Shown here in pieces: positions 14,248 through 46,988 of a DNA stretch of 64,000 bases (within the stretch, counting starts at the first letter, position 1; each line of letters begins with the position of its first letter). A program made the translations under genes and the position numbers. The DNA is from an uncultured Nitrososphaerales archaeon (GTDB taxonomy: Archaea > Thermoproteota > Nitrososphaeria > Nitrososphaerales > Nitrososphaeraceae): assembly GCA_963695855.1 (NCBI GenBank), contig CAVOHZ010000010.1, forward strand, positions 96,001 through 160,000, in the 5' to 3' direction. The notes under the pieces were generated by a model, which ran no database searches, was not told where the DNA came from, and saw nothing but the letters and a program-made list of their open reading frames with translations.

Positions 14248-15144
14248 CTATCTCATTTTATAAAATTTGTAAAGGCCACCACTTTCTCTATTAATATACT
14301 TCCAGTCTTTATCATCAGTTATAACTTCATTGAATGAAGGTTGGATTCTAGGATGTAATAACTTGTATAAGTTTTCACCTACAGACACCTTATTTGCTTC
14401 GGTAAGAGATGTTATCTTTGCAGTTACATTCATACAATAACCAAGGACATCAATCGGAGAGCTCTTGTCGTAACCATACTGTACAATTACATTTTCTCCC
14501 ACATCAATTCCAATTTTCACTGCAAGATTGGGATAATCATAATTCTTTAAAATAGGATTGAGACCTTTCGTTATTGTATCTATCATTGATTTTCCACACT
14601 GGACAGACTTGTCACATACTAGAATCTTGTTAAATCCTATTGGAAAAAAAGAAATTATTGCATCTCCAGCATACTTTAACACGAAGCCATTATAACTTTC
14701 AATAACTGAAGACAATTCATGTGAAAAAGCTCGAATTATTGTGACCATTTGTTCTGCAGGTAATGTCATACTCATCTTTGTAGAACCAACAAGATCAGCA
14801 TACAGAACGACGAGTTCAATCTTAGAATTAACATGTTTGAGAAGAAAATTTTGACCTCTCATTATGGATGTATTATATTGGTAACGTTCTTCTAATGCTT
14901 GCCAAAATCGATCTTTCCTCTGAGCAAAGAGAGTTTGCAAATCGACAAGATTATTAACGCTGGATTCAGCCATCGAGTTATCACTATAGTATTGATTACC
15001 TATCATTCTATTTAGAATCCTTGTTTTGTTTGAATCTTGGGCTGTCTTCAATTTTTCTTCTTTTTTTAACTTTAATTTTTCTATATCTTTATTAATTCTT
15101 GTTTTCTTTGAACCCTTTTCTTTACTAATTTTTCTTGAAGACAT
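14248..15144 (-). CDS. Class III adenylate/guanylate cyclase
   Basis: LYADLVGST, VLKYAGDA, KIGIDVG, DVLGYCMNVTAKI. Confidence 0.9.
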   Translation of the reverse strand: MSSRKISKEKGSKKTRINKDIEKLKLKKEEKLKTAQDSNKTRILNRMIGNQYYSDNSMAESSVNNLVDLQTLFAQRKDRFWQALEERYQYNTSIMRGQNFLLKHVNSKIELVVLYADLVGSTKMSMTLPAEQMVTIIRAFSHELSSVIESYNGFVLKYAGDAIISFFPIGFNKILVCDKSVQCGKSMIDTITKGLNPILKNYDYPNLAVKIGIDVGENVIVQYGYDKSSPIDVLGYCMNVTAKITSLTEANKVSVGENLYKLLHPRIQPSFNEVITDDKDWKYINRESGGLYKFYKMR

Positions 15145-42355: not shown

Positions 42356-44449
42356 TTAAGGACCAAAGGAGTTGTTGTATACAATTCCAATTGATGGAAA
42401 TAAGCCGTTATTCATCAAACTGGTAATTTCTGCATTGGTGAGAGCCCTGTTCCAGACACCAACCTGATCCAGTTGACCTACAAAAGCGTCTTGTCCGAGA
42501 GACTGGGCATTTTCTGCTATCCTCAATGGCTGCGTTCCCATGTTGTCTGGATTGGTTGAAGTAGATAGTGTTCCTATCTGTGCACCATCAACAAATAGCC
42601 TAACAATATTATTTGCATTATCAAATGTTACCACTGCATGATGCCATTTGCCATCATTGTAAGTACTCGTGGATGTTATCCATTTGTTTGAACCGCCTGT
42701 AGTCTCAAAGCCTCCGACCAATCTCTCAGATGAGTCTAACCATATTCCATAGTTAAGGTTATTACCTGCACTTTCCGGTCCAAGACCTCCCTTGTTCACC
42801 TCCATCCCTTTTCCAACGAAGTTGGCTGTTGTTTTGAACCAAGTTGCAACAGTAAACGATGATAAATGAAGTTTCTGAGTATCAGGAACATCTATTCTAT
42901 CTGACCCTGTTGTGGTAAAGAATGGTTCGTAGTGATATCCAATAGCCTGCTGACAATCTGAATCTGCTGCATCTTTAGACCCATCACGGTCGTCATCCAG
43001 TCCATTATTGCATATCTCCTGTACTGCGGGACAATCCGTATCTTCTGCATCTATCTTTCCATCACCATCGTTATCTTTTGCGTCGTTACATACTTCTGGA
43101 TTAGAGGTAACAGAAGAATCAATATTTCTCACATATAGCAATCCTTCTGCAGAAGTGTCTTTATCACCAGTAAAGTATCCTCTACCTTGTCCATCACATA
43201 AGGTAGCTGGATTTGTTCCCAAATTCTTAATTGTATTTAATACAACGGAAGGAGACGTGCCTGGATGTGATGAAAGGTAAAGTGCAACAGATCCAGTTAC
43301 ATGTGGTGTAGCCATACTTGTTCCACTGAGAGTTGCATAGCTGGATTTATAGGTAGAATAGATATTTACACCTGGAGCTGCCATATCTACTACATTTCCA
43401 TAGTTACTAAATGATGCGAACGAATCATCTTTACCATAGTTTGAAGAACCTCCCAATCCACCGCATTTGCCATCTGTATCTACAATTGCTGAAACTGCAA
43501 TAACATTGGGATGATTTGCAGGTGAAAATGAAGAAGCATTTTTGCCGTCATTTCCTGCCGCAACCACAAATGTAACACCAGCGTTGACTGCTGCATTAAT
43601 AGCCGTATTCAATGCAGATGATGTACATTGACAACCCAGGCTCAGATTAACGACTTCGATTTGATCCGCGTTTGCAGTAACATAATCTATTGCTGAAATA
43701 AGAGATGATATTGAACCGGATCCGCTGTCATCTAGAACCTTCAAATTCCATAATCGTGCTCCAGGTGCTACCCCTACAACTCCAACAGTGTTATCCTTTG
43801 CAGCTGCAGTTCCAGCTACATGAGTTCCATGACCATTTCCATCGGTGGCAAGATATGAGGTTCCGCTGAAGTCCTTATTTATAAAAATATTCAAATCCTG
43901 GTGATTGTATATTCCAGTATCAAGTATTGCTATATCTACATTGACACTTCCAGACCCATCCCCAGATCTGGTGAAACTTTGATCTGCATCAATTCTGTTT
44001 ATACCCGTTGGTAATGTTTGAGCAAATGATTGAATCTTTTGATCCTGCTCTACGTACTTTACATTCGGATCTGCTCTTATTTTATCAAGCTCTGATTGGG
44101 TATTAATTTTAACGACTGATGCTTTAATGGAATTTTGAAAAATATTTAAAATATCAAGATCTTTAAAAGTGCTTTTTTCTATTTTTTTTACTAGCTGATT
44201 TATTAGGTAATTGGGGTTCTTGACATCGTCCTTGAAAACTACAATGTACTGGTTTGGAATTTTGGGGTCGCTAAACGTGTCTACTTGTTGTTTTACTATG
44301 TTGTCATCGTTTACAGCAGAAGGTAATGATAATAATGATGATGACGTTTGTCCATAGATTTCGTTCGAAATGGACGGAAGTGAAAAACAAGATGCAAAAT
44401 AAATCACCGATATCATAGAATATACTGCAAGAGTATTTACTTTTTTCAA
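42356..44449 (-). CDS. Secreted subtilisin-like S8 protease with I9 propeptide, two EVC/EIC-Asp repeats and a LamG domain
   Basis: ILDTG, GHGTHVAG, GTSMATPHV catalytic triad motifs. Confidence 0.92.
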   Translation of the reverse strand: MKKVNTLAVYSMISVIYFASCFSLPSISNEIYGQTSSSLLSLPSAVNDDNIVKQQVDTFSDPKIPNQYIVVFKDDVKNPNYLINQLVKKIEKSTFKDLDILNIFQNSIKASVVKINTQSELDKIRADPNVKYVEQDQKIQSFAQTLPTGINRIDADQSFTRSGDGSGSVNVDIAILDTGIYNHQDLNIFINKDFSGTSYLATDGNGHGTHVAGTAAAKDNTVGVVGVAPGARLWNLKVLDDSGSGSISSLISAIDYVTANADQIEVVNLSLGCQCTSSALNTAINAAVNAGVTFVVAAGNDGKNASSFSPANHPNVIAVSAIVDTDGKCGGLGGSSNYGKDDSFASFSNYGNVVDMAAPGVNIYSTYKSSYATLSGTSMATPHVTGSVALYLSSHPGTSPSVVLNTIKNLGTNPATLCDGQGRGYFTGDKDTSAEGLLYVRNIDSSVTSNPEVCNDAKDNDGDGKIDAEDTDCPAVQEICNNGLDDDRDGSKDAADSDCQQAIGYHYEPFFTTTGSDRIDVPDTQKLHLSSFTVATWFKTTANFVGKGMEVNKGGLGPESAGNNLNYGIWLDSSERLVGGFETTGGSNKWITSTSTYNDGKWHHAVVTFDNANNIVRLFVDGAQIGTLSTSTNPDNMGTQPLRIAENAQSLGQDAFVGQLDQVGVWNRALTNAEITSLMNNGLFPSIGIVYNNSFGP

Positions 44450-44725
44450 TATTTATTTGACTAAACTATAAATATATTAGCAATTCTCATATTTATTAGA
44501 AAAAATTTGTTATATTCTTTTTTTTATATAATATTATATAATTTAGTATTTTTTACTTTTAATATAACGTATATAGATGACTAGAACTCTTGAATGGTAT
44601 GTACGCTAGATTCATCATCACTAGAAAATATTATATTTAATATGTTTATTCTTCTGGCTCTGTAGGTGAAATGTTCGACAGAGCTAACATTCAAGAAGAA
44701 AGCCACTACCAATACTCTTGCAAAT

Positions 44726-45754
44726 ATGTATGCGGCATTAGATTTAGGACAGAAAAACATTCAGGCAGTATTGAAAAATAAAGATGGTAAGATTATAAAG
44801 GAAAATAAAATACAGCGTAATACCAAAACAATACTAGAATTTCTTGATAATAGTAACAAGAATCATAATAATATTGATATTGTAATGGAGTCTGGTTACA
44901 ACTATCAATATCTATATGATCTTTTACAAGATGAAGGTTATAATGTAAAAGTAGCACATCCACTAATGGTCAAGGCAATAGCATATGCTAAAGTCAAGAC
45001 AGATAAAGTAGATGCTAGAATATTAGCAGATCTACTAAGAATGGATATGATACCAGAATGTTATATACCTAATAAAGATATAAGAAATTTACGAGATCTA
45101 GTTAGACGCAGATACTATTTTGTCAGTATTCGAACAATGTTCAAAAACAAAGCACATGTTGAGATGAGTAAAAGATGGTTAGATGCTAATGTGACTAATA
45201 ATATAACAACAACAATGATTAAAAATGATCCATTTTCTAAAAAAGGAAAATGTCATTTACGTTCACTGGGAATACATGCATTAGATGATTGCCTTGATAC
45301 CATAGATTTTCTAGATAGAAAAATAAAAGAGTTGGATACAGAAATAAAGAAATTGGCAATAGAAGATAAATACTCTAAACATCTTATGACAATTCCAGGT
45401 ATATCTTACTATGCAGCTCTTCTAATATCAAGCGAGATAGCAGATATTAACAGGTTTCCAGACTATGAACATCTGTGTTCTTATGCTAGATTAGTACCTG
45501 GTACATATCAATCTGGAAATACATCATTCTCAAAAACAGACAAAAAACAAGGGAGCAAAATGCTAAACTGGATTATGGTACAGTGTACTCATACACATGT
45601 ACGTTATTGCCAATCATCGATAACAGTACATTACAACAAGATAAAGAATAGAAAGAGAAATAACAAAATTGCTATAATTGCAGCAGCAAGAAAATTAATG
45701 CGTGTGATATATGTTATGCTAAAGGAAGATCGTCCCTTTAGACTGGATGAATAA
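44726..45754 (+). CDS. IS110 DEDD recombinase/transposase
   Basis: YAALDLG, VMESG, KTDKVDA (D-E-D-D); TIPGI; PGTYQSG catalytic-Ser motif; AAARKL; likely start ATG 44726. Confidence 0.95.
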   Translation: MYAALDLGQKNIQAVLKNKDGKIIKENKIQRNTKTILEFLDNSNKNHNNIDIVMESGYNYQYLYDLLQDEGYNVKVAHPLMVKAIAYAKVKTDKVDARILADLLRMDMIPECYIPNKDIRNLRDLVRRRYYFVSIRTMFKNKAHVEMSKRWLDANVTNNITTTMIKNDPFSKKGKCHLRSLGIHALDDCLDTIDFLDRKIKELDTEIKKLAIEDKYSKHLMTIPGISYYAALLISSEIADINRFPDYEHLCSYARLVPGTYQSGNTSFSKTDKKQGSKMLNWIMVQCTHTHVRYCQSSITVHYNKIKNRKRNNKIAIIAAARKLMRVIYVMLKEDRPFRLDE

Positions 45755-45759
45755 TAATA

Positions 45760-45900
45760 TAGTATAGGACCTCTTGGTTTCTTGCATCGTCATATTGTTA
45801 TTATTATATGATAAGTATGATGGATGCCATCTGTAGGTTAGGTCTGGCTACTACTAGCGCAAAGCCACGGTGCACTATTGGTGCGTATGGGAGAATGCTA
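45760..45900 (+). ncRNA. Putative bridge/seek RNA with target-binding and donor-binding loops
   Basis: Two stem-internal loop-stem modules; loop segments TGGTTTCT and TCTGTAG match the target halves, ATGGGAG matches the element's right end; boundaries approximate. Confidence 0.8.
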
Positions 45901-45986
45901 TTATTCATCAGTTAATCATATTAGGAACGAGTATTATATGAACATGGGAGAAACCATCATAGCTAGCAACATTCTACAGTTAATTA

Positions 45987-46988
45987 TTGAACAAACAACA
46001 ATCAAAATATGTTAGATTAGCAGATCAACTATTACGTATTCTCAAACATTGCAGAATTCCATTATATTTGCATAGAAAGAGCAACCACATTTACACAGTA
46101 TGGCAACACATAGTACTTGTTACAATAAGACAGTATGAAGGTAAGAGTTATCGAATGTTTACAGACTGGCTTGTTGAAGCATACTATTTGAGATTGTTTT
46201 TACAACTATCCAAAATACCACATTATACAACCTTACAAAAATTCACTGATAGAATCAACATCATGAAGCTTGGAAAGATAATCTCATCATTTATCCTCTT
46301 TACAGGTACAAGACACATATTTGCTGGAATAGATGCAACTGGATTCAAAATAACATATGCGTCAGAATATTATACGAATAGAGCCAAATTGAGAAGGAAG
46401 AAATATGCTAAATTATCTATTGGTGCAGATGTTCTAAAACAGATAATCTGCAAGGTCAAGGTAAGACGAGCTCCAACAACAAGACATGACAATATGGATT
46501 TCAAACCTATTGTAACAAAAATATCAAAAATAAAACCATTATCGGTAGTTGTAGCGGATAAAGCATATGATAGCGAAGATAACCATGTACTTGTAAGAGA
46601 GAAACTACATGGATTCAGCATCATGCCTCCAAGATATGAACAAGTACCAGTATGGAAAACTCGTGGTAAATATAGAAAGGAGATGAAACGTGGATACAAC
46701 AAGATTCTATACAATCAAAGAAACAAGGATGAAACTATGGTATCTGTCATAAAAAGACTATTTGGGGAACATATCACATCCAAACTTGTGAGAATGCAAA
46801 ATAGAGAATTGACATTCAGATGTATAGCATACAATACTCACAGAATGGTGAAGTTGGTTGTTATAGTAATGGTTTCTACACAGCGATTCTTCTACAAATT
46901 CACATATATTCAGGAACTGATATTGATGTGCTTGAAGCAAACTCTCGTACTACGTCTTCAGTTTCTCTGTATGGTAAATGAAAGTTAA
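45987..46988 (+). CDS. IS5-family DDE transposase; reads through the right TIR into the flank
   Basis: PHYTTLQKF, GIDATG, VADKAYDS, YNQRNKDET..SVIKR. Confidence 0.9.
   Translation: MNKQQSKYVRLADQLLRILKHCRIPLYLHRKSNHIYTVWQHIVLVTIRQYEGKSYRMFTDWLVEAYYLRLFLQLSKIPHYTTLQKFTDRINIMKLGKIISSFILFTGTRHIFAGIDATGFKITYASEYYTNRAKLRRKKYAKLSIGADVLKQIICKVKVRRAPTTRHDNMDFKPIVTKISKIKPLSVVVADKAYDSEDNHVLVREKLHGFSIMPPRYEQVPVWKTRGKYRKEMKRGYNKILYNQRNKDETMVSVIKRLFGEHITSKLVRMQNRELTFRCIAYNTHRMVKLVVIVMVSTQRFFYKFTYIQELILMCLKQTLVLRLQFLCMVNES

Follow-up and report, generated by a model that had tools for sequence, protein, structure and literature searches.

The predicted bridge RNA of an archaeal IS1111-type insertion sequence contains, next to each of its two right-hand guides, a dinucleotide (GU in the target loop, AA in the donor loop) which probably acts as a handshake guide of the type described for IS621. 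The element is located in the stretch of 64,000 nt from an uncultured Nitrososphaerales archaeon which was analysed here (in the following, the window), and its features are listed in Table 1. The original prediction started from two sequence identities, both of which are exact: TCTGTAGGT at 44659-44667 recurs at 45830-45838, and ATGGGAGAA at 45887-45895 recurs at 45944-45952. Both shared runs comprise exactly 9 nt and extend no further on either side. The assignment of GT to the donor and of AA to the target, which was also proposed, is confirmed by empty sites.

The boundaries of the element rest on three near-identical copies in its own genome, all of which interrupt an IS5-like element at one and the same position in its left end, and on three unoccupied copies of this target with the sequence GGCTCTGTAG|AAACCATC (L010 and L011; L007 with one change). 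The occupied copies read ...CTGT[AG]GTGAAATG...CATGGG[AG]AAACC, the left end beginning with GTGAAA after the core. Comparison of occupied and empty sites leaves an ambiguity of two nucleotides, AG, and this is the core common to target and donor. This gives CTCTGT-AG-GTGAAA as the left junction, CATGGG-AG-AAACC as the right junction, and GGCTCTGT AG AAACCATC as the target in the IS5-like end. Thus, the insertion is site-specific, with a shared core of 2 nt and no further duplication at the three occupied and three empty sites, as is characteristic of the IS110 family. The non-coding region downstream of the gene, which contains the RNA, and the subterminal inverted repeats are marks of the IS1111 group, as is a top-strand match located 5' of the bottom-strand match, which is also present here (for the group as described in PMC11187229 and PMC11208160).

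Table 1. Features of the insertion sequence, its predicted RNA and the interrupted target, in the order of their positions in the window.
Feature	Position	Strand	Basis or remark
Left portion of interrupted target	44656..44665	+	First 10 bases, GGCTCTGTAG, of the IS5-like left end; target resumes at 45951; empty sites
Core copies of the element	left AG 44664-44665; right AG 45949-45950	+	
IS1111-type IS110-family insertion sequence	44666..45950	+	1285 bp including one copy of the AG core; boundaries from occupied versus empty sites
Recombinase ORF	44666..45754	+	362 aa if the start is GTG at 44666; Pfam domains, IS621 match
Left subterminal inverted repeat ATGTTC	44671..44676	+	5 nt inside the core; partner of GAACAT (45940-45945)
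Bridge/seek RNA (predicted)	45740..45912	+	Consensus fold, covariance model, pair counts
Closing stem P1 (predicted)	45743-45756 with 45899-45912	+	5' strand includes the last codons and the stop codon
Target-loop 5' guide (LTG equivalent) UGGUUUCU	45775..45782	+	Complementary to top strand AGAAACCA, core plus right target half, 45949-45956
Hairpin P3 within the target loop (predicted)	45784..45827	+	Consensus fold, pair counts
Target-loop 3' guide (RTG equivalent) UCUGU plus core AG	45830..45836	+	Same sense as left target half plus core, 44659-44665; pairs with bottom strand
Target-loop handshake-type dinucleotide GU	45837..45838	+	Identical to the first two bases of the left end, 44666-44667
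Donor-loop 5' strand CAAAGCCACGG	45860..45870	+	Conserved across the clade
Donor-loop 3' guide (RDG equivalent) AUGGG plus core AG	45887..45893	+	Same sense as right end plus core, 45944-45950
Donor-loop handshake-type dinucleotide AA	45894..45895	+	Identical to the two bases that open the right target half, 45951-45952; abuts stem P4
Stem P4 (predicted)	45896-45898	+	Adjoined by the donor-loop dinucleotide
Right subterminal inverted repeat GAACAT	45940..45945	+	3 nt ahead of the core
Rest of the IS5-like element	45951..46988	+	DDE_Tnp_1 ORF at 45987-46988

Several further sites in this genome are related to the element or to its target. A pattern search detected eight target-like sites without the element. 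The sites at G000:C10:1600856-1600875 and G000:C2:69939-69958, both unoccupied, read GGCTGTGTAGAAACCAT[C/T]AC and differ from the left-end target in two to three of 20 bases, one of which is within the part read by the 3' target guide; they likely represent the IS5-like element's other terminal repeats. A truncated fourth copy of the insertion sequence (L004, G000:C3:39402-39742) consists of the last 340 bp with the RNA only and is 94% identical. Its flank AAACCTTCCTAC differs from those of the other copies and is similar to the usual right half of the target; the right end of this copy now reads ATTGGAG, while its RNA still contains AUGGGAG. In the window, the sequence TCTGTAGGT is found once more at 14377-14385 (minus strand), inside a 298-aa ORF (14248-15144, minus strand) and as part of a 13-nt match to the left junction, TCTGTAGGTGAAA. 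Around this copy neither an IS5-like end nor more sequence of the element was found, and it may be a chance match or an old scar. Just upstream of the element, a 697-aa ORF (42356-44449, minus strand), in whose translation subtilisin-like motifs were recognized by eye, ends approximately 200 bp before the IS5-like end; it is not part of the finding described here. Finally, an AT-rich box, TATTATAT, is present at 45931-45938, 11 nt ahead of the right end, and GC-rich relatives have the AT-rich sequence ATAAATAT in the same stretch. Since circularization of the element would bring the box directly in front of the left end and the ORF, it could be a junction promoter such as those described for IS110/IS1111 elements.

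[quoted passage not shown] Its conserved N-terminus MYAALDL starts at 44726, and thus the true start of the recombinase is uncertain. In the alignment with the IS621 chain 8wt6_A (E 4e-13), residues D26, E75, D113, D116 and S283 are found opposite D13, E, D104, D107 and S243 of the chain, which correspond to the published D11, E60, D102, D105 and S241 (the chain is offset by 2 residues, counted by hand). According to its sequence, the protein belongs to the IS110 family, with a RuvC-like DEDD domain and a Tnp domain with the catalytic serine. A scan of viral contigs revealed no relative.

To describe the RNA, relatives were drawn from genomes of the same class, from public genome contigs and from metagenome contigs, and 28 of their 3' regions align well. 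The minimum free energy fold of the single sequence 45755-45950 was no better than those of shuffled sequences (z 0.05), and therefore the comparative fold was used. In this predicted structure, the stem P1 closes a target loop composed of the outer stem P2 and the hairpin P3, and a donor loop composed of the outer stem P4 and the hairpin P5, with compensatory changes in P1, P2, P3 and P5. Such a structured RNA with two internal loops in the non-coding end is the hallmark of a bridge or seek RNA. The consensus fold of the MAFFT alignment has 25 pairs, 10 of them with double changes. In the alignment fitted to the covariance model, 97.9% of the cells are paired and 17 of the 25 pairs are changed on both sides, which was reached in none of 500 shuffles; since the fitting to the model favours structure, the independent MAFFT fold is the safer basis.

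The covariance model, which was built from the alignment of the 28 sequences, matches the window at 45740-45909 (94.7 bits, E 1.1e-23). Among the 46 matches listed, 44 have E values of at most 1.8e-15, including the three copies in the own genome. Further, the model recovers eight more RNAs in loci outside its training set, in addition to the degraded L043 and two weak matches. Rfam contains no family for the RNA region, its sole match being a chance-level snoRNA outside this region. Two pairs of paralogues in the own genome (L022/L023 and L024/L025, approximately 36% identical) differ in architecture, have a long non-coding region at their 5' end and were set aside. A contig of an uncultured archaeon MAG (L076:3010-3499) contains three tandem copies of the bridge-RNA region: behind the right end CATGGGAG, the sequence begins anew at ACCTTCAGGCTGG, the 3' end of the recombinase ORF, and at this restart the ORF reads GGAACAG|ACC, near the element's own target GGAACAG|AACC. 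From its sequence, this arrangement looks like a self-insertion into an own copy followed by loss of most of one copy.

The guides of these RNAs follow the flanks of their elements. We tabulated 43 RNAs against their junctions and counted 35 distinct guide sets. Excluded before the guide sets were counted were L043, in which a deletion removed the right donor guide, and the weak model matches L051 and L066 (E ~1e-3). The right flanks of L102 and L075 misfit the 5' guides of these elements and are probably rearranged; they were still counted among the observed flanks. Around 20 different arms of the 3' target guide each match the left flank of their own element. In 20 of 30 comparisons this match is exactly 5 nt long and in none is it longer; 5 nt is also the length bound by the RTG of IS621 (positions 10-14; PMC11208158). 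For the 5' target guide, 31 of 37 comparisons showed a match of 4 to 7 nt to the right flank, counted after the core. Thus, the target loop contains one guide per target strand, and the two guides meet at the core and change with the target, as is expected of a bridge RNA. The top-strand match UGGUUUCU is located 5' of the bottom-strand match UCUGUAG. A convincing left donor guide was not found in the donor loop when it was read by eye: in CAAAGCCACGG only CAC can pair with the GTG of the left end, which amounts to three bases here and to four in most relatives.

Two other candidate guides were rejected. AUGAUGG at 45818-45824 is complementary to a part of the right target half, but it lies inside the hairpin P3 and is altered in the partial copy L004, whereas the real 5' guide UGGUUUCU sits in the loop. 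UCUGGCU at 45843-45849 repeats 44653-44659, and was rejected because this flank is unique to the copy in the window and is absent at L002 and L003.

Both dinucleotides directly follow the core-pairing bases, at the end of the 3' strand of their loop and next to the closing stem, which is the place of the handshake guides in IS621 (bases 81-82 and 166-167). When the DNA is read on the strand antisense to the gene, it has CT as core and ACAGA and CCCAT as arms, and the bases preceding the core are AC in the donor and TT in the target, which are complementary to GU and AA, respectively. Before exchange GU faces the AA of the target, with at most one G.T wobble, and AA faces the GT of the donor; thus, GU and AA together form none of four possible Watson-Crick pairs before exchange and all four after it. 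This corresponds to the definition of handshake guides in IS621, which can pair with positions 6-7 of the non-cognate DNA but not with those of the cognate one. According to the available descriptions of IS621, the RTG and RDG bind top-strand positions 10-14 and, after exchange, the incoming core; the next two RNA bases are then paired with positions 7-6 of the other DNA (PMC11208158). Sequence comparison establishes for the element in the window the complementarity, the register of 5+2+2, the fold of the RNA and the way in which the guides follow their targets.

We propose the following course of events. In the target loop, the 5' strand would pair with the top strand of the core and the right target half, and the 3' strand UCUGUAG with the bottom strand of the left target half and the core. 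In the donor loop, the 3' strand AUGGGAG would pair with the bottom strand of the right end and the core. The first pair of strands would then be cut at the core and swapped, upon which each dinucleotide could pair fully with the strand arriving from the other duplex. By analogy with IS621, the strand exchanged first would be the one antisense to the recombinase gene, and the four handshake pairs would affect the efficiency or the direction of recombination.

Since each 3' strand has 9 nt of complementarity to a junction of the integrated element, the matches could also be understood differently: the RNA would read both junctions of the integrated element and drive its excision, the additional bases being extended excision guides. 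Indeed, the same RNA of IS621 was reported to mediate excision, with the RTG and RDG on the junction halves (PMC13626964). The same report describes that excision of IS621 is reduced when handshake pairs are already present before exchange, and that insertion benefits from the natural arrangement, while extended excision guides predict the opposite. In addition, three copies of the element are still in place in the own genome beside unoccupied targets. We consider a primary role in excision improbable.

A more serious competitor is the possibility that the RNA is a real bridge RNA, in which the additional matches have no role of their own. GU would then be a scaffold closing the target loop and AA an A-rich linker before P4, and their agreement with the junctions would be a product of chance and shared descent. 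The run TCTGTAGGT occurs three times in the whole window, while 0.27 occurrences are expected, and none of 100 shuffles reaches three. For ATGGGAGAA two occurrences compare with 0.78 expected, and 20 of 100 shuffles reach two. Given the 7-nt matches, the chance that both dinucleotides match their non-cognate partners is approximately 0.006, with base frequencies as well as with dinucleotide frequencies and with the prior search for extensions unaccounted for, and this speaks against mere coincidence, as does the register of exactly 5+2+2 in both loops, which is that of IS621. The match of AA alone has a chance of approximately 0.11 in this AT-rich DNA and agrees with a linker.

The relatives of the clade offer no usable covariation. 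The target-loop dinucleotide is GU in all 35 guide sets, and the donor starts with GT in all 28 left junctions seen and also in L044. In all 28 aligned RNAs, GU is part of the invariant motif AGGUU[A/G]G. Since neither GU nor the donor end varies in the clade, the pairing was never challenged there, and a conserved scaffold motif explains the agreement equally well. In the donor loop, the first base forms a Watson-Crick pair with the target implied by the own 5' guide in 32 of 35 sets, whereas pairing of this base with the cognate donor was found in none of them, which is at odds with a linker of no function. The second base forms a Watson-Crick pair in 10 sets and a wobble in 21, and is unpaired in four.

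This agreement in the donor loop arises mostly because both partners are nearly constant. In 34 of the 35 sets, A is the first base of the implied right target half, and in 32 this half begins with AA, while the donor-loop dinucleotide occurs as AA, AG, AU, UA and UG, a variation facing a mostly uniform target which would be expected of a linker. Only in L091 does the target start with T, and here the first donor-loop base is U and matches. It is the sole match among the four sets with U at this position, since in L088 and L044 the U faces A, and in L046 UA faces GC in the observed flank (AC in the target implied by the own 5' guide). Conversely, L090 has kept AA although its target reads AG. 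An exact test on the first bases (2x2, calculated by hand) gave p ~0.11.

To look beyond the clade, a second archaeal family was compared, consisting of nine elements of the same class with two copies each (L052, L056, L058, L063, L070, L175, L178, L180 and L182). Its recombinases are 35-40% identical to that of the window. The constant bases are TA-AC-[C/T]ATATGTG on the left and CACAT[G/A]GA-TA on the right; the bases beyond them vary, and therefore TA is the core and AC a part of the donor. In the target loop, the 3' strand reads through the left flank and UA, followed by AC in seven of the nine elements, by AA in one and by AU in one, while the donor has AC in all nine. This suggests that the target-loop dinucleotide follows the donor end across families, as judged from the sequences of two families in which both sides have changed (GU with GT, AC with AC). 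Such a joint change is not expected of a mere scaffold.

For the donor loop, comparison by eye of the dinucleotide with the observed right flank gave clean matches of the first base in only two of the nine elements (L052 and L182), which is approximately the level of chance and is in line with a linker. In L178 only one of the two copies matches, and in L180 one copy has only a G.T wobble. The registers of the 5' guides of L052, L056 and L180 disagree by 1 nt when read by eye; hence, the core TA was derived from the constant bases and only observed flanks were used. In L058, L063 and L180 (G357, G349 and G135), two sublineages of this family are inserted a few bases apart in one repeated sequence, ...CAAT TA TGCA TA [A/C][A/G]GTCTAAT..., so that the flank of one element is the empty site of the other.

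IS4321 was compared by eye using one bacterial copy and one empty site in the same plasmid. The 3' strand of its donor loop reads on into the target (ATAGAT+TC), in agreement with a handshake. The 3' strand of its target loop runs on with the sequence of its own target (TATTTTC) rather than with that of the donor (AA), and thus is of the cognate type, which again would be compatible with dinucleotides lacking a role of their own. Target and donor of IS4321 share only 1 nt at the crossover, and consequently the register of the core is uncertain by 1 nt; the target-loop result holds in both registers, whereas the match in the donor loop is full in only one. In IS621, an arrangement of the cognate type as in this target loop was reported to block insertion (PMC11208158). 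The handshake rule is not universal among the IS1111-type RNAs compared, and the mixed results from the relatives suggest a tendency rather than a requirement.

Taken together, the relatives are suggestive of a handshake in the target loop, and their support for one in the donor loop is weak. The covariation across homologues which the original prediction named as its check is visible for the target loop in the change between the two archaeal families, and for the donor loop in the single lineage L091. Within the clade, the target loop is invariant, and L044, L046 and L088 have mismatches in the donor loop. Outside the clade, the donor loop of IS4321 agrees with the rule, its target loop is of the cognate type, and the donor loop of the second family is at the level of chance. 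Weighing both sides, we regard dinucleotides without own function as rather unlikely, and a role of GU and AA as handshake guides as the better explanation. The tuning of both loops for the post-exchange state, proposed as separate support for the RNA, fits the geometry and is the best reading of it, although it adds little to the case that the RNA is functional. A working RNA and a mechanism common to archaea are both supported mainly by the covariation between guides and targets and by the conserved fold, and less by the two-nucleotide positions.

How does this RNA compare to known systems? Like the RNA of IS621 (as described in PMC11208158 and PMC13626964), it has two loops, and in each of them the 3' strand is composed of an arm of 5 nt, two core-pairing bases and two bases for positions 6-7 of the other DNA. 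The strand with which the 3' guides pair has a CT core in both systems, more pairs are formed after exchange than before, and the recombinases are homologous, with DEDD and Ser kept. Unlike in IS621, the RNA in the window is located downstream of the gene and its closing stem uses the last codons, its guides have the reverse order relative to the gene strand, and a clear left donor guide was not recognized. Further, the host is an archaeon, and all four predicted handshake pairs are of the Watson-Crick type after exchange, while wild-type IS621 is reported to have one pair before exchange and three after it (PMC13626964). The handshake arrangement of IS621 pulls strand exchange forward toward insertion and disfavours excision.

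With the IS1111-group seekRNAs of ISEc11, ISPa11, ISKpn4 and ISPst6 (PMC11187229), the element shares the downstream region, the subterminal repeats, the specific target and the top-strand match located 5' of the bottom-strand match. The descriptions available from this source give target matches only, which overlap in the target, with no donor loop or handshake bases, and in this they differ from the RNA in the window. As in a known system which is reported to insert in the terminal repeat of another mobile element, a single fixed point and a single orientation are used; here, however, the target is an IS5-like archaeal insertion sequence, the core is a different one and the proteins are only ~21% identical. 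The second archaeal family resembles the element in its RNA at the 3' end, in inverted repeats located 5 nt and 3 nt from the core, and in a target-loop 3' strand composed of the left flank, the core and the first two donor bases. It differs in its TA core, its AC donor and a donor-loop dinucleotide which does not agree with the target.

Archaeal recombinases of the IS110 family are on record, with 662 of them reported in one survey and attributed there to several horizontal transfers, and bridge RNAs were reported as predicted for 93% of the catalogued IS1111 elements. Descriptions of handshake guides exist for IS621, and among IS110-type orthologues they were reported as a covariation signal (PMC11208158, PMC13626964). 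In the main texts of the literature searched, whose supplements may hold such data, we found no description of them for IS1111-type or archaeal elements.

The identification of handshake-type bases in this element is of interest for several reasons. In the published accounts, the efficiency and direction of bridge recombination are at present controlled at the RNA level mainly by handshake guides. The element in the window is a clean natural test case for them: it is archaeal and of the IS1111 type, its four handshake pairs are perfect, its donor and target are defined, and empty sites exist in its own genome. A handshake rule that is a tendency would also matter to the design of guides for IS1111-type recombinases. 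It is tempting to speculate, although we would not yet call it the expected outcome, that archaeal IS1111-type RNAs share the handshake step of IS621 in spite of their location at the opposite end of the element and their reading of the other strand, that the order and polarity of strand exchange are fixed across subgroups and domains, and that the target-loop handshake is hard-wired to the donor end while that of the donor loop is relaxed. If this is true, a relaxed handshake in the donor loop would allow the element to take a new target by changes of its guides alone, and the natural variants AA, AG, AU and UA would set differing balances between insertion and excision.
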